A stretch of 64,000 bases of DNA, from positions 160,001 to 224,000 of IMG/VR virus record IMGVR_UViG_3300028048_000040; one strand, written 5' to 3'. This document shows, piece by piece, positions 40,161 to 49,810 of the stretch; the stretch's first letter is position 1; each line of letters begins with the position of its first letter. The notes under the pieces are model-generated. The model had not been told where the DNA came from and did no database searches. It saw nothing but the letters and a program-made list of their open reading frames with translations. Both the position numbers and the translations under genes were made by a program. Origin of the DNA: a virus (Duplodnaviria > Caudoviricetes).

Positions 40161-40817
40161 ATGAAACTGATTGTAGTAGTAGACCTGCAGAATGAATTCC
40201 TTGGGTGGCAACCAAAAACTATCCAGAAAGAACTTCCTGAAAAGGTAGTGAACTATGTTGAGAAACAAATGGAGAATCGTTCTACAAGATTATTATGTAC
40301 TCGTGATACTCATCTTGAAAAGGATTATGATGAACATTTTGAATCTTGGACTTATCCTCTTCATTGTGTTCGTGGTACTTGGGAATGGGAAATTGCTCAA
40401 GAACTTGAATGTTATATGAACAGAATAGGTTATAAGAATTGCTGGGTTATCAATAAGCCTACTTATGGTGATTATAGAGAAATACTGCGTTTAAAAGAAC
40501 TATTTAACTGGGAATTCGATGAAATTGAAGTAGTTGGCCTTACAACAGATATTTGTGTACTGGCTACTATGGTTATGCTCAACTGTCTATTCCCTAAAGC
40601 AGAACTGTCTGTTATTGATGAGCTTACTTATGGTACTTCTGAAGAGAAGAAACAGCATGCTTATCAAATAATTAATTCTATGGGATTCCATATCAAGACA
40701 CTTCAAGGATTTGATTATAATTGTCCTGAAGCATGGGAAGATGAAGCTATTGAGAATGATGTAATCAATAAGTGCTTTGAAATAGCTGATAATCTTAAAG
40801 AGAAGGATGATGAATAA
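40161..40817 (+). CDS. pncA: Nicotinamidase / isochorismatase-family cysteine hydrolase
   Basis: VVDLQNEF, TRDTH, PLHCVRGT, INK, GLTTDICV. Confidence 0.8.
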   Translation: MKLIVVVDLQNEFLGWQPKTIQKELPEKVVNYVEKQMENRSTRLLCTRDTHLEKDYDEHFESWTYPLHCVRGTWEWEIAQELECYMNRIGYKNCWVINKPTYGDYREILRLKELFNWEFDEIEVVGLTTDICVLATMVMLNCLFPKAELSVIDELTYGTSEEKKQHAYQIINSMGFHIKTLQGFDYNCPEAWEDEAIENDVINKCFEIADNLKEKDDE

Positions 40818-43420
40818 TGAGAAAAATAATCATCATGAGGGGCTTGCCTGGTTCTGGTAAGTCCACATGGATTAGACAGCATGACCTAGAGGACTATACT
40901 TTATCTCCTGATAATATTAGAAAGATTGTTGCTAATCCTGTCATGAGAATAGATATCCCATACTTCGCTGTAGATCAGACTAGAGATTTCATTGCATGGG
41001 ATATTCTGTTTGATGTTCTGGAACAGAGAATGCAGAGAGGAAACTTCACTGTTATTGATGCTACAACTCTTACTGCAGACCAATTCAATAGGTATAAAAA
41101 GCTTATTGAAAGATATAAGTATAGAGCATTGGTAGTAGACTTTACCGATATGCCTGTTGAAGAGATCAAGAAACAGAACGCAGAAAGAGCTAATACAGTA
41201 GGTTATGTTCCTGAATGGGCTATTGATAGGCTCTATACCAGATGGGAGAATACTGAAGAGTTTATTAAGTCTAACAGATTTAAGATTATTAAACCTACCG
41301 ACTTCTATGAATTTGATAAATTCATGTCTATGAAACCTCTTCAGTTAGATGAAATGAGCTTCAAGAAAGTAGTATTCATTGGAGATATCCATGGTTGTTG
41401 GTCTGCATTGAATAACTACTTTAAGGATACTACTCCTAAGGATCATCCTGATACATTCTATATATTCTTGGGTGATTATCTGGATAGAGGTCCTGAGAAT
41501 GTAGAGACTTTCAAACACTTATACGAATGGAGGGAATACAATAACGTCTTATTATTGCAAGGTAATCATGAAGATCATTGGAAGAACTTTGTTCATGATA
41601 ATATTCCAACTGATGCTTATGAGAAGATTGATTTCTATAAAGAAACACTTCCTCAGTTAGTAGAAGCTGGTATCACTAAAAAGGATATTGCTAGATTAGC
41701 TGATAGACTTGGTCAGTGTGCATACTTGCAGAATAAGTTTACTCAAATTTTAGCAACCCATGCTGGTATCAATGGTATGGTTAAATCTTATGAAGATGGT
41801 AAGAAAATAGCTACTAGCTTCTATGATTCTTATTTCCTTACTAAAATGAATACTTATCAGATGGTGCATGGTGTTGGTGGATATGGTGATGTAAATAAGA
41901 TTGCTGAACAATGGGAAGAATTCATTAATGTTTCTAAGGGTCAAATCAAAGGTGGAGAATTTAAGTTCTACCAGATCTTTGGTCATAGAAATGATGATGG
42001 TCTTCCTGTTCAGGTTTCTGACCATGTCTTCAATCTAGAGGGTGGAGTATCTATCCTTCTCAATGAAGATGCTAGACTGAGGATAGTAGAGTATGATGTT
42101 GAGAATGATACTATGACTCCTGTGGAGGTCATAAATCCTAAGTGGAATATAGGTTATGAGAATACTCCTAATCCTCATACTGCTCTTATCAAAGATAGAA
42201 TGATTAGAGCTAAGGAACTTATCAATGTGAAGAGATTGCATGATAATGTATGTGCATTCAACTTCTCTAATGATGCTTGGTATTCTAAAGGATGGAATAG
42301 TCTTACTTGTACTGCAAGAGGATTGTTCATAGATGTAGAAAAGAATGAAGTAGTTGCTAGATCTTATGATAAGTTCTTCAATTATAAAGAAAGAAGAGAG
42401 ACAAAGGATCTTAATCAAATGCTTAAACATATCAAGTATCCTGTAAGTGTATATGAAAAGTATAATGGCTTCCTTGGTATTCTTTCTATATATAATGGAG
42501 AATTACTGTTTTGCAGTAAGTCTGAGGATCATTTATCCACTTACAAGAGTAATAGTGATTATGAACCTCCTATTGGCAAGAAGATTGAATATGCTATTAA
42601 GAATAGTCTACGGGCTATTATTCCCAAGAAGAAGCAAGAGGAGTTAAAGCATTGGTTTGATGAACATGAATACTATTCCATGTCTAGAATAGTAAATAAG
42701 CATCTTATTGACCATAGACAACCATCTAACTGCATGGCTCTTCTCTTTAAAGAGAATTTTGAGAAACTTGTTCCTGTAGAAACTCAGGAAAAGATTAAGA
42801 AATTCTTACTAGAGAAGAACTGTTCTATGTTGTTTGAGGTTATTGATCCAGAAAGAGATCCTCATATCGTTATATATGATAAACCTAGAGTAGTATTGCT
42901 TGATATTGTATATAATGATATTGAGAAGCCAGCAGCACTCTTCAGTTATAAGAATCTGCAAAATCTGAATAATGGCGTCTTCCATCTTGATCTCAAAGAA
43001 CAAGTAGAGGTCATTAAAGATGAAGAACATTTTAGAGCATTTGTAGAAGGATTCTATAGTTCTACTCATCTTAACAAAGAAGGATTTGTATGTAAAGATG
43101 CTGAAGGATTCATGCTCAAATTCAAGACAGCAGATTATAAGTTCTGGAAGAGTGTAAGAACTATGCTTGATTCAGTTAATAATAGTGACTATGGAGCTGT
43201 ACCAACATTCAATCATACTTGTCCTTACTTATCTGCTGAATTTGATCCTACTGTGGTTCAATACTATAGCAAAGTATTTGATAATTTACTAGGATTCTTA
43301 TTGGAAAAGTTTGGTCAAGAGAGAAGAGATGAACGTATAATCTTACCTCCTAACTTCTTAATCAAACCAGATGGTAGTAGATACAATGTGATTGATATTC
43401 GCAAAATGGTAGATATGTAA
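40817..43420 (+). CDS. RNA repair enzyme: polynucleotide kinase, metallophosphoesterase and Rnl1-type RNA ligase
   Basis: GLPGSGKST and IDAT; GDIHG, GDYLDRG, GNHE; ARGLF, KFFN, EKYNG, EGFV, KFK. Confidence 0.9.
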   Translation: MRKIIIMRGLPGSGKSTWIRQHDLEDYTLSPDNIRKIVANPVMRIDIPYFAVDQTRDFIAWDILFDVLEQRMQRGNFTVIDATTLTADQFNRYKKLIERYKYRALVVDFTDMPVEEIKKQNAERANTVGYVPEWAIDRLYTRWENTEEFIKSNRFKIIKPTDFYEFDKFMSMKPLQLDEMSFKKVVFIGDIHGCWSALNNYFKDTTPKDHPDTFYIFLGDYLDRGPENVETFKHLYEWREYNNVLLLQGNHEDHWKNFVHDNIPTDAYEKIDFYKETLPQLVEAGITKKDIARLADRLGQCAYLQNKFTQILATHAGINGMVKSYEDGKKIATSFYDSYFLTKMNTYQMVHGVGGYGDVNKIAEQWEEFINVSKGQIKGGEFKFYQIFGHRNDDGLPVQVSDHVFNLEGGVSILLNEDARLRIVEYDVENDTMTPVEVINPKWNIGYENTPNPHTALIKDRMIRAKELINVKRLHDNVCAFNFSNDAWYSKGWNSLTCTARGLFIDVEKNEVVARSYDKFFNYKERRETKDLNQMLKHIKYPVSVYEKYNGFLGILSIYNGELLFCSKSEDHLSTYKSNSDYEPPIGKKIEYAIKNSLRAIIPKKKQEELKHWFDEHEYYSMSRIVNKHLIDHRQPSNCMALLFKENFEKLVPVETQEKIKKFLLEKNCSMLFEVIDPERDPHIVIYDKPRVVLLDIVYNDIEKPAALFSYKNLQNLNNGVFHLDLKEQVEVIKDEEHFRAFVEGFYSSTHLNKEGFVCKDAEGFMLKFKTADYKFWKSVRTMLDSVNNSDYGAVPTFNHTCPYLSAEFDPTVVQYYSKVFDNLLGFLLEKFGQERRDERIILPPNFLIKPDGSRYNVIDIRKMVDM

Positions 43421-44039: not shown

Positions 44040-44150
44040 AAAGTTAAATTTTATATGACTAAAATTTAATTCGGTTATATACTATATTAGTGTATAACAT
44101 ATGCGAATCTTAAACTTTTATACCATTTACATTTATGAGGAGGATAAACA

Positions 44151-44849
44151 ATGACAAAAGAAACTTTGACTATTGCTCAGATTATTGCTGAGTGTAAGTC
44201 TACCCAGAATAAAATCTTTACTACCATTGGTGATAAAGATTTCCGTCTTGTAGAGTATTATATTAAGGCTAAGCCTTATGTTGGTGCCCGTAACATCACA
44301 GAAGAAGAAGAAAGAATCACTTCTGATGCTGATAAGATCTCTGATCTTATGCTTCGTTTTGATGCTCTTACAAAAGCTCGCATTAAGGCTAATGCTGAAA
44401 CTATGGTCAAAGTTCCTGAGCAACTTTCTCTCAAAGATCTCTTTGCAGGTAAAGAAGCTAAGGAAGAAGAGATTAGCATTGCTGAAGCTATTAATCGTAA
44501 GAAGTATTATATAAACTTCATGAAGTCTATTATAGCTAACTTCGAACGTCAGCTTTCTAATGCATCTTCTCGTAAAGGTCAGCTTGAATACGAGGCTGCT
44601 AATCTTGTCAATCATGATCTTGACCAGCAGTTCCCTCGTGATGTCCAAAAGAACTGGTCTACAGATGCACAGAAGAAGGCTCGTGAAGAACTTGAAAAGA
44701 AGTATGAGGTAGTTCGTCTTGATCCTAAAAACATCATTGCGAACGATTCTATTAACAAACTCAAAACTTCTGTCATGGACTATATTGATAAGATAGATAC
44801 TACTCTGTCTATCATTAATGCTAAGACTGAAGTTACCATTGAGTATTAA
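44151..44849 (+). CDS. Coiled-coil protein, resembles the DIP1984/DUF6847-like family
   Basis: TIAQIIAECK, IKANAET.V, SIAEAINRKK, IDTTLSIINAKTEVTIEY; CGT/CTT/GCT-biased codons; own early promoter 44076. Confidence 0.7.
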   Translation: MTKETLTIAQIIAECKSTQNKIFTTIGDKDFRLVEYYIKAKPYVGARNITEEEERITSDADKISDLMLRFDALTKARIKANAETMVKVPEQLSLKDLFAGKEAKEEEISIAEAINRKKYYINFMKSIIANFERQLSNASSRKGQLEYEAANLVNHDLDQQFPRDVQKNWSTDAQKKAREELEKKYEVVRLDPKNIIANDSINKLKTSVMDYIDKIDTTLSIINAKTEVTIEY

Positions 44850-44857
44850 TATCTGAT

Positions 44858-45382
44858 AAGTTTATTGCTTGGGAGACCAAAATATAAAATCAATCAACCC
44901 TTTCTTTACTTGGGAAGTTGGTTCTTTTGGGGTTATAAAAGAACTTAAATTCTCGCTAATAAAATAAAATTCTTTAGGAAAAAGAATCAGCGACTCATAA
45001 TCGCTACTTAAGTTAAAGCAACGATCATTTAAATCGTGTAGCTTATAATTGGCATGATAATTAAAGATATGCCACCAAACTTTAAACCTTTAAACGGATA
45101 AACTTATAAAGTATAAACCTTTAAACTTTTAAAACGCCCTTCCAGAATTGACAGGCTCATTTGATACCTAATAGCAAAAGGGCACTTTAACTTTATAAAC
45201 TTTTATAAACGATTGGTATATTAATAATTTAAAACTTCCAATCATTATAAACCTTTAAAGATTTAAACTTATAACCCAAATCCTATATTTAACTGTGTTA
45301 TGCTGTTACTCGAAGAGGGTCACTGAGGTGTTTGATTGACCTCAAATATCAGTTATAGGTGATTAACCTGAGCAATTAAATT
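44858..45382 (+). ncRNA. Candidate large structured ncRNA with periodic UAAA repeats
   Basis: Closing helix 44864-44873/45367-45376, many internal hairpins, no ORF of 60 aa or more. Confidence 0.7.
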
Positions 45383-45526
45383 TATATATAAAATAATCTG
45401 CAATTGATTATCACTCAAACAAATTCAGATTGTTTTACTTGCCGTATTTGTAACATTGTGTAGAACGGCAAAACGTGTATCTAAAAAATCATACAACAAA
45501 TCTTTTGAAGTACCAAATCCTTGTGT

Positions 45527-45566
45527 AAATACAGGTAGACTCCTTGTGAGTCTACCTGTATTTTTT
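45527..45566 (+). terminator. Strong intrinsic terminator
   Basis: AAATACAGGTAGACTC-CTTGT-GAGTCTACCTGTATTT followed by a T run. Confidence 0.85.
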
Positions 45567-45627
45567 GTCTTTTTAAAACTCATTTTTAATTATATATTAT
45601 TTAAGTGAAAGATAGGAGGAATATGAA

Positions 45628-45990
45628 ATGGAAAACGATATAAAAAAACTCGGGTTATTATCAGTCTTTATCCACATATGCTAAATATATTAGACACAGA
45701 AGGGGAGATCCGTAACTTTCCGAAATGTGAGACTCCAGCAAGAGTCTCACATTCTAAAAAATTAGAAGGGTGTATCTTGGGAATACCTGTTACTCGTCAG
45801 ATATTTGGGAAGGTCGAAAATCTTCCTGAATTTAAATCTGGGACATTCTATATAGTGTCCCGTTTGGTTGAAGTTACAGCCAAGAAAGAAGGTCGCAAGA
45901 CAAGCGATCTCCTTATCCCTGGTCCTGCTATTAGAGATAAAGAGGGGTGGGTAATAGCAACTAAAGGCTGGCTTCTCCGTCATATAATTT
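45628..45990 (+). pseudogene. Frameshifted phage gene of the IINLTPH...YIVS...DL..P...RD..G type
   Basis: RBS-backed ATG 45628 is out of frame with VIISLYPH across the A7 run 45642-45648; the listed ORF reads through the terminator at ~45995-46015. Confidence 0.5.
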
Positions 45991-48715: not shown

Positions 48716-49810
48716 TTGTCTTATCTTAAATTCAATGAATATAATTCTCCTTGGTCTACAAGAATGAATACTTTTATATCAGAAGATGATATTGGTGTAA
48801 ATTTATCTAGTTGGAATTCTGGAGAAATTAATACATTATTTATCACTGGCATTTCTGGATCTGGTAAAACTACTCTAGCTAAAAAGTATGCTAAAGATTT
48901 TAAATGTACTAAAGTACATCTAGATACATTTTGGCATATGGGATCTTTATCTTTAGATAAGATTAAAGCTTGGTGTCCATTAATATACCAATACATAGAT
49001 GAAGGTAGGGTAGATAAAAATTGGCTAAAACCATATTTAGCTAAGAAAAAGAAATCTTGTATTTCTATTTCTGATTATAAAGAAATAAGAAACACTCTTT
49101 ATAAATTTTTGGATTGGTGTCTTAAAAAGAAAGAAAGAAAAGTAATAGAGGGTGTAGATATTGCTGAATATGTTATAATTAGGCAATTATTAGAATATCC
49201 TATTATACTTAAAGGGACTTCAAAATATCATTCATTAGCTAGACGTTGGTCTAGAGATTGGGATCGTTTTAAGAAATCTGATAGAACTTTCTTATCGCAA
49301 TTAATAGATGATAAGGTTGTCTATGATATGTGGGAAACTGAACAAAACCATCTAAGACAAATCATACTTCATAGGAATGCAGAAATGACAACCTTAAAGG
49401 AATCTGTAGGAACATATCAAGATTCTCTTTCTATATATAATTCTCTTACTCCACAAGAAAAGAAATGGTGTTCTCCTTCAGGTAGATTTATAGATTCTCC
49501 TATATTGATTAGCAGACAAATAATCTATGATAGAAATAGACCTGCAGCATTTGGTGAAGTATATAAATGGAATGGTAAATCTAAAAATGTTGGTTTTATT
49601 GTATTAGCCGTACATAAAAATCATAGAGGAAAAGGATATGCTAGACAAGTCATAGATAGATGTATAGCCGAGATAAAACAATTAGGATATAATAGACTTA
49701 TCTATAGAGTAGATATAGAAAATACAGCATCTATTAGACTTGCTGAAAGATATGGATTTGAACTTACTAAAGAAAGTAAAGGTTATAAATCATTTAAATT
49801 AGATATTTAA
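48716..49810 (+). CDS. P-loop kinase-GNAT acetyltransferase fusion with MSYLKFNE leader
   Basis: GISGSGKTT, HLD, IEG; LAVHKNHRGKGYA and NTASIRLAERYGF. Confidence 0.8.
   Translation: MSYLKFNEYNSPWSTRMNTFISEDDIGVNLSSWNSGEINTLFITGISGSGKTTLAKKYAKDFKCTKVHLDTFWHMGSLSLDKIKAWCPLIYQYIDEGRVDKNWLKPYLAKKKKSCISISDYKEIRNTLYKFLDWCLKKKERKVIEGVDIAEYVIIRQLLEYPIILKGTSKYHSLARRWSRDWDRFKKSDRTFLSQLIDDKVVYDMWETEQNHLRQIILHRNAEMTTLKESVGTYQDSLSIYNSLTPQEKKWCSPSGRFIDSPILISRQIIYDRNRPAAFGEVYKWNGKSKNVGFIVLAVHKNHRGKGYARQVIDRCIAEIKQLGYNRLIYRVDIENTASIRLAERYGFELTKESKGYKSFKLDI

Follow-up and report, generated by a model that had tools for sequence, protein, structure and literature searches.

An AT-rich jumbo phage carries, downstream of the gene for a 232-aa protein, an uncatalogued folded RNA of roughly 510 nt, and in it lies an array of short UAAA(C) units that follow each other mostly at 8-nt intervals. 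We read this array as a multivalent platform that would be coated cooperatively by the 232-aa protein, with feedback through copies of the same units in the leader of its gene, and we give this reading a probability of about 0.45. Gene and RNA together suggest a self-regulating RNA-protein particle of a new kind. The window analysed here is a stretch of 64,000 nt (bases 160001-224000 of a complete virus record of 342,328 bp), and positions are those of the window unless an accession is given.

The UAAA(C) array

The original prediction described periodic UAAA(C) units at 45077-45283, divided into three blocks by the hairpins GCCCTT/AAGGGC and GATTGG/CCAATC, and the sequence matches this description: there are 15-16 units, mostly 8 nt apart, both hairpins are present, and every unit lies on the + strand.

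45077-45135, + strand: array block 1, eight UAAA(C/G) units at a spacing of 7-8 nt
45136-45183, + strand: hairpin HP1, GCCCTT/AAGGGC (strands 45136-45141/45178-45183), dividing blocks 1 and 2
45184-45210, + strand: array block 2, three units
45211-45243, + strand: hairpin HP2, GATTGG/CCAATC (strands 45211-45216/45238-45243), between blocks 2 and 3
45244-45281, + strand: array block 3, 4-5 units, with a conserved AAAUC at its end that runs into helix P3

The AAAC or AAAG cores of block 1 start at 45077, 45084, 45092, 45100, 45108, 45115, 45123 and 45131, and block 3 terminates in CCAAATCC, the final bases of which are the start of helix P3 (described below). Tandem Repeats Finder reports a period of 8 with 6.9 copies at 45080-45133. 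Starts of AAA runs coincide at a lag of 8 in seven cases; 2000 shuffles that preserve dinucleotides average 0.47 +/- 0.66, with a maximum of 3, and none of them reaches seven. The 7-unit chain is the sole chain of more than four units on either strand of the whole 342,328-bp genome. The motif WTAAAC occurs nine times on the + strand and not once on the - strand in 45082-45268, compared with about one per kb per strand elsewhere. Block 2 also contains UUAACUUUA, which we take to be the 'epsilon' enhancer of T7 gene 10.

The folded RNA around the array

The array makes up the 3' half of a + strand RNA that is closed by a long-range stem and holds two pseudoknots.

44864-45376, + strand: whole folded RNA, ~513 nt, closed by P1 and P2
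44864-44873 with 45367-45376, + strand: P1, long-range closing stem
44875-44878 with 45361-45364, + strand: P2, closing helix inside P1
44891-44897, + strand: 5' strand of pseudoknot PK1, pairing with the P6 loop at 45332-45338
44921-44928 with 44937-44944, + strand: hairpin of the 5' domain (44896-44944), whose loop pairs with 44896-44900 as the second pseudoknot
45282-45359, + strand: 3' domain, with P3, P4, P5 and P6
45282-45287/45354-45359, + strand: P3, helix of the 3' domain
45302-45305/45350-45353, + strand: P4, helix of the 3' domain
45308-45320, + strand: P5 hairpin, with a conserved GAAGA loop
45324-45344, + strand: P6 hairpin, whose loop pairs in PK1

There are 26 distinct homologous RNAs in five clades, with 44-70% RNA identity between clades. 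The closing stem encloses ~480-530 nt at each locus, and its strands (ATTGCTTGGG/CCTGAGCAAT here) have very different sequences in the other clades. With P1-P6 placed by positional rules in 11 representatives, 336 of 340 cells pair and 21 of 31 positions have compensatory double changes, figures for which helix placement relied partly on complementarity searches and in which a one-base register shift may underlie some of the signal for P3 between clades A and B. For the 3' domain, with P6 excluded from the formal count, 97.4% of the cells pair in a covariance-model alignment as against 70.7% in shuffles, and the covariation score is 0.703 versus 0.247 in shuffles (0/500); slid partners pair in at most 49%. 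Moreover, the covariance model R2 of this domain finds clade D, which is absent from its seed, at the right place with an E value of 0.0024. The PK1 duplex, of 6-12 bp, lies 10-14 nt past P2 in all clades with different sequences, and double compensatory changes separate clades B and C. The second pseudoknot likewise changes from AACCC/GGGTT here to ACTCC/GGAGT at locus L002 and GGAGAGC/GCTCTCC in clade B. The G-U pairs in P1, P2 and P5 are compatible with the + strand only. These comparisons support the view that the array sits inside an RNA on the + strand, not in a DNA element.

Rfam 15 gave no hit in the window at the gathering score, and on 44700-45750, with E values allowed up to 10, it returned only unrelated families at chance level, all of them far below the gathering score. 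There was no covariance-model match to the Rfam families, including ROOL, GOLLD, OLE, raiA, Y RNA, 6S, tmRNA and RNase P, and on five related loci the only Rfam matches were tRNAs elsewhere or hits at chance level. ARAGORN detected neither a tRNA nor a tmRNA. The literature searched held no earlier account of such an RNA, and 200 of the 408 supplementary files of one published catalogue contained no match. By exact-pattern scans of IMG/VR, the jumbo-type 3' domain occurs in two contigs only, and among cultured phages neither blastn nor tblastn found a match with the window's own sequences.

The array in the homologous RNAs

Absence of the repeats from homologous loci had been named beforehand as the observation that would count against the array, and the repeats are kept at every homologous locus, so the array stands on this point. 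The UAAA units between the central hairpins and P3 are found in all clades with a period of 7-8 nt. In 12 RNAs, 129 distances from one unit to the next were measured; 49 are of 8 nt and 14 of 7 nt. The A columns at 45085, 45093, 45101 and 45109, ~8 nt apart, are invariant in all 26 homologues, even though the clades overall share no more than 44-50% identity. The number of strict UAAA units ranges from 9 to 15 per RNA among the jumbo-phage homologues, and the three-block layout is restricted to clade A. The stems of the two intervening hairpins change between homologues: HP1 covaries to GCCCCT/AGGGGC at L001 and is represented by unrelated stems in the same place at L002, L004 and in clades B/C, and HP2 is swapped for TTTCGGG/CCCGAAA at L002, for ATGGA/TCCAT at L004 and for a short AU hairpin in clades B/C. 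Read from their C, the units give C-U-N-N-U-A-A heptamers that resemble anticodon loops, namely CUUUUAA here (Lys-like), CUGUUAA at L029 (Asn-like) and CUGUAAA in clade B (Tyr-like).

The three blocks had been assumed to be single-stranded. This accords with prediction for nine of 11 representatives, in which RNAfold predicts the UAAA cores to be more unpaired than the remaining RNA (probability of being unpaired 0.47-0.63 versus 0.40-0.47), but not for this phage or for L001, whose cores have mean values of 0.32 (with the core helices fixed) and 0.37, respectively. In this phage, 11 of 14 units are held in self-complementary UUUAAA/UUAUAA hexamers, a duplex of block 1 with block 3 reaches -10.1 kcal/mol as against -4.3 +/- 1.7 for shuffled sequence, and in the RNAfold prediction that keeps the core helices block 1 is paired to blocks 2/3; the hexamers and the block 1/block 3 duplex explain why the cores are not predicted to be more unpaired here. 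The array sites of this phage, in view of these predictions, may not be free. Since the self-complementarity is absent at L029 (0/10 units) and nearly so at L004 (1/9), the conserved feature is the A-rich unit and its register rather than a pairing; in the alignments it is the unit sequence that is conserved, rather than any pairing partner.

The 232-aa protein and its leader

The original prediction proposed the product of the gene at 44151 as the candidate ligand, and this choice has gained ground: no other gene is linked with the RNA throughout the clades, and units of the same kind recur in the 5' leader of this one.

44111-44149, + strand: leader 5' of gene 44151, holding two units of the array type (UAAAC at 44111 and 44145)
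44151-44849, + strand: gene for the 232-aa protein, the candidate RNA partner, the sole gene beside the RNA that is common to all clades

Relatives of the protein, with 27-97% identity, come from rumen and gut metagenomes. At every locus with enough DNA the gene is followed by a gene-free stretch of 760-1300 nt, and P1 always starts at most ~30 nt from the stop codon. The protein belongs to no Pfam family, and no function is named for it by Pfam, PHROGs, a PDB sequence profile, Foldseek against PDB and BFVD, VIA-align or the ESM Atlas (fold and features). Among the families and structures searched it has neither a recognised RNA-binding fold nor a characterised relative, and its pI is about 6. 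A 'tail fiber' label in PHROGs is unsupported. The best structural match, 3kdq (Z 11.4, rmsd 6.1), is itself without an assigned function. AlphaFold2 models the protein as helical (pLDDT 86), and as a homodimer it attains an ipSAE of 0.66, compared with 0.33 for the best control, with runs agreeing in at least 92% of contacts and a partner pLDDT of at least 87; among proteins of solved structure, 20 of 30 pairs of one chain come up to this ipSAE mark, as against 1 of 23 single chains. According to these models, the protein is probably a symmetric dimer.

The leader copies are exact. The 12-mer at 44111 is identical to the block 2 sequence at 45196, and the 8-mer GGATAAAC at 44142, between the Shine-Dalgarno (SD) sequence and the ATG, is identical to block 1 at 45096. 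In every clade the leader of the 232-aa gene holds 2-3 units near the ribosome-binding site; they are spaced 7-8 nt apart at L001, L002, L004, L029 and L032, an arrangement found in 2 of the 228 SD-led genes of this genome. The type of unit is also the same in array and leader in several lineages: UAAACUG at L029, UAAAG at L004 (which has no UAAAC) and UAAACCUA at L002. Over ten lineages this lineage-specific match is suggestive, but with a permutation P of 0.08 we do not take it as proof. By the number of 7-mers shared with the array the leader of 44151 ranks fifth of 228 genes, four other leaders sharing as many or more, and the genes whose leaders share the most have no tandem units.

Putative transcription unit and genomic neighborhood

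The 775-nt gap that holds the array is bounded by the 232-aa gene and the next gene at 45678, and it has no + strand open reading frame of 40 codons before 45456. The signals at either end are the following.

44075-44085, + strand: promoter-like motif TTATATACTAT, at the head of the putative transcription unit
45527-45563, + strand: intrinsic terminator, a 16-bp perfect stem followed by a T run, closing the unit

The motif TTATATACTAT has 19 copies in the 342-kb genome (12 on the + and 7 on the - strand) and precedes the homologous gene at L001, L002 and L004; it probably represents a phage promoter class. An equivalent terminator lies 3' of the RNA at L001, L002, L004 and L005. With the promoter-like motif, gene, gap and terminator in this order, gene 44151 and the RNA look like a single transcription unit, co-transcribed from 44075 to 45527-45563. 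Between the folded RNA and the terminator there is a box, AAAAAATCATACA (45484-45496), that is conserved at L001 and L002 and nearly so at L004, and that may serve in processing or as part of a promoter.

Two genes upstream of the module, 40817-43420 encodes an 867-aa fusion of polynucleotide kinase, metallophosphatase and T4-type RNA ligase, which is conserved at clade A loci. On the other side, 48716-49810 encodes a 364-aa protein with an N-terminal P-loop NTPase signature and a C-terminal GNAT acetyltransferase domain. Since genes for RNA repair neighbor the module here, and tRNA genes do so in the relatives described below, its surroundings point to RNA metabolism.

Probable relatives in T5-like and rV5-like phages

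The protein from L029, a more distant homologue, matches proteins of T5-like and rV5-like phages, with 27 phage records found by tblastn, and hhalign links the family to T5.085 (97.7%, E 1.7e-12) and to 4MG_080 (97.4%). The T5.085 locus is conserved in 455 phage records.

Phage T5, AY543070 43067-44143 (L037): gene T5.085 and an unannotated gap of 443 nt
Phage 4MG (L038): gene 4MG_080 and an unannotated gap

The ~370-440-nt gap after both genes has a long closing stem of its own and a short (U/C)AAA(C/G) track. RNAs of the T5/rV5 type start ~10-50 nt past the stop codon (~12 nt in the T5-like SP15, ~47 nt in 4MG) and measure ~330-360 nt, with ~4-10 units 7-9 nt apart that are followed by AAAYC and a P3-type helix. 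The leader of T5.085 holds UAAACUUC, identical to one unit of the array that follows this gene. The module lies among tRNA genes in T5-like and rV5-like phages (4MG, pVp-1), and the gene next to the RNA on its 3' side bears, in some T5-like records, the annotation of a cyclic-phosphate processing receiver domain protein.

The 3'-domain models R1 and R2 have no match in the gaps of T5, SP15, pVp-1 and 4MG, where the shared feature is the layout only. Rfam searches of the T5 and 4MG loci, with E up to 1, returned tRNAs elsewhere or chance-level matches, and literature searches on a T5 RNA or T5.085 produced nothing relevant. On the strength of the protein homology and the shared layout, we consider the T5/rV5-type RNAs to be probable shorter relatives of the jumbo-phage RNA. 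The T5 record also lists 'rnaX, stable RNA with unknown functions' at AY543070 40848-41566 (L037 4078 onward, 719 nt); lying ~1.5 kb downstream, this RNA is distinct from the one in the T5.085 module.

A model for the module and its alternatives

We infer protein binding to the units, the 232-aa protein as the ligand, cooperativity and translational repression alike, and in the resulting model gene 44151 and the ~513-nt pseudoknotted RNA would be made as a single transcript. The folded core, with P1-P6 and two pseudoknots, would present ~15 UAAA(C) units 8 nt apart, in three blocks with two hairpins between them. The 232-aa protein, probably as a symmetric dimer, would bind the units side by side and cooperatively, so that one RNA carried many copies. 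Once the array was full, free protein would bind the 2-3 leader units beside the Shine-Dalgarno sequence and shut off its own translation. T4 gene 32 and the ribosomal-protein operons would be precedents for such autogenous control, which relies on target mimicry.

Could the units instead be structural RNA, forming weak A-U helices between the blocks, A-minor-type contacts with the core or RNA-RNA contacts as in ROOL and GOLLD, with no dedicated protein reader? The self-complementarity of 11 of the 14 units in this phage, the stability of the block 1 x block 3 duplex (-10.1 kcal/mol) and the pairing of the blocks by RNAfold are all in favor of it, and self-assembly of large ornate phage RNAs, as reported (10.1101/2024.12.08.627333), can be counted on the same side. 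However, the self-complementarity is not kept at L029 (0/10) or L004 (1/9), in nine of 11 representatives the predictions leave the cores more unpaired than the remaining RNA, and the A-rich side is conserved as sequence, without a covarying partner. A structural role, which would also leave the same units in the leader of the gene unexplained, seems to us unlikely. Host proteins offer another set of potential readers. A/U-rich runs before a Shine-Dalgarno sequence are classic S1-dependent enhancers, and because A/U-rich leaders are common translational enhancers, the leader units could mean something ordinary. The array might be a sponge or landing pad for a host A/U-rich single-strand binder (S1/30S subunit, an RNA chaperone or a ribonuclease), and co-transcription would be the only tie to the 232-aa gene. 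The multi-site sponge RNAs CsrB and CrcZ are a precedent for such an arrangement, and the 232-aa protein is without a recognisable RNA-binding domain. Nevertheless, the gene-RNA pair is constant across clades while all the other neighbors change, the units recur in the leader of that same gene with a type that tracks the array in several lineages, and both observations are more in keeping with a phage factor that co-evolves than with a conserved one of the host. Tandem units are, besides, rare in the other leaders of this genome (2/228), and we judge it quite unlikely that the array serves a host factor.

The anticodon-loop-like heptamers, or A-rich cores resembling the sites of abortive-infection ribonucleases, might also make the units decoy substrates of host defences that cut RNA. 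The heptamers are evident in the array sequences themselves, the module follows the kinase/phosphatase/RNA-ligase repair enzyme (40817-43420) by two genes and the related module lies among tRNA genes in T5-like and rV5-like phages. On the other hand, the units are not displayed in stem-closed 7-nt loops, and any A/U-rich 8-mer can look like an anticodon loop; with resemblance as the sole basis, decoys strike us as a long shot. Lastly, the repeats could function at the level of DNA: as origin iterons (an alternative offered by the original prediction), as a packaging site or as a promoter array, and direct repeats in an AT-rich, gene-free gap do have the classic look of iterons. Iteron origins, though, have direct repeats of ~17-22 bp that function as duplex DNA beside an initiator gene and an AT-rich unwinding element; the units here are much shorter, a period of 8 bp does not keep in phase with the DNA helix, the adjacent genes include no replication initiator and the cumulative GC skew is still rising across 44-46 kb, with no skew change. 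In addition, all the units lie on the transcribed strand, interleaved with RNA-covarying helices that include G-U pairs, and a function in DNA is thus very improbable.

Coating of the array by the 232-aa protein, our preferred reading, can be extended to a broader proposal that we regard as speculative and, on balance, doubtful. From T5 to the 340-kb phages of gut and rumen, one protein family and one family of pseudoknotted RNAs would constitute a new viral ribonucleoprotein particle, in which the protein polymerises on the 8-nt-periodic UAAA(C) track, gauges its own abundance through the leader copies and acts in the RNA-repair/tRNA side of the phage-host conflict. To our knowledge, few large structured RNAs have dedicated protein partners, and nearly all of those found so far (the ribosome, RNase P, SRP, tmRNA, OLE) brought new biology. 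The periodic conserved track predicts a binding register that can be tested, and the motif in the mRNA leader of the partner predicts a feedback loop. With probable relatives after T5.085 in T5 and hundreds of sequenced coliphages, standard E. coli genetics becomes applicable; the module could also account for the conserved 'empty' gap in these genomes.

Comparison with known systems

TRAP reads 11 (G/U)AG triplets, with 2-3-nt spacers, on an 11-subunit ring, and by analogy the original prediction had supposed one site per subunit of a ring or filament. The Bacillus trp leader and the present array are indeed alike in their many short, regularly spaced RNA repeats, which in the case of TRAP are read by one oligomeric protein. 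The unit here, however, is UAAA(C) and unlike the triplets, 5 nt with a 3-nt spacer gives a period of 8 nt, the copy number is variable and hairpins interrupt the series. Since the unit number varies from 9 to 15, the protein is modelled as a dimer and the 342-kb phage genome has no match to PF02081 (TrpBP/MtrB), for which the B. subtilis control was positive, a fixed TRAP-like ring is disfavored; a cooperative coat or several dimers fits better. Type III antitoxins of the ToxI kind are tandem repeats of ~34-36 nt beside a ToxN-family gene; we rejected this comparison, the repeat unit here being 8 nt and the neighbors matching no nuclease family in Pfam or PHROGs.

In size (~500 nt), pseudoknotting, presence in phages and discovery by covariation, the RNA resembles ROOL, GOLLD and OLE, the last of which has a dedicated protein partner. 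It differs in that their Rfam models do not match it even at E = 10, and we know of no description of a periodic short-repeat array in any of the three. The sponge RNAs CsrB/RsmZ (GGA, CsrA) and CrcZ (A-rich, Hfq/Crc) carry copies of a motif that also occurs in mRNA leaders and competes for one protein, much as proposed here. Their sites, though, are in hairpin loops or scattered, whereas the present array keeps a strict 8-nt register; unlike this RNA, they have no large pseudoknotted core and are not fused to the transcript of a candidate partner gene. GGA periodicity of the CsrB/RsmZ type is absent from the array, the units of which are A/U-rich.

Of the known systems, the T4 gene 32 operator comes closest; in it, a pseudoknot is followed by UUAAA/UAAA repeats, about five units in a 5' leader of ~70 nt, that are bound cooperatively (PMC535899). 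In the phage genome there was no match to the SSB family PF00436, with a working control, or to the gp32 family PF08804, the control for which was also without a match. The T4 operator contrasts with the present module, which has ~15 units in a 513-nt RNA that lies 3' of the gene, with no more than 2-3 in the leader, and whose candidate ligand is a helical protein unrelated to gp32. What the two systems share is a run of UAAA units beside a folded, pseudoknotted element, with units near the ribosome-binding site of the gene that is regulated in T4 and may be so here.
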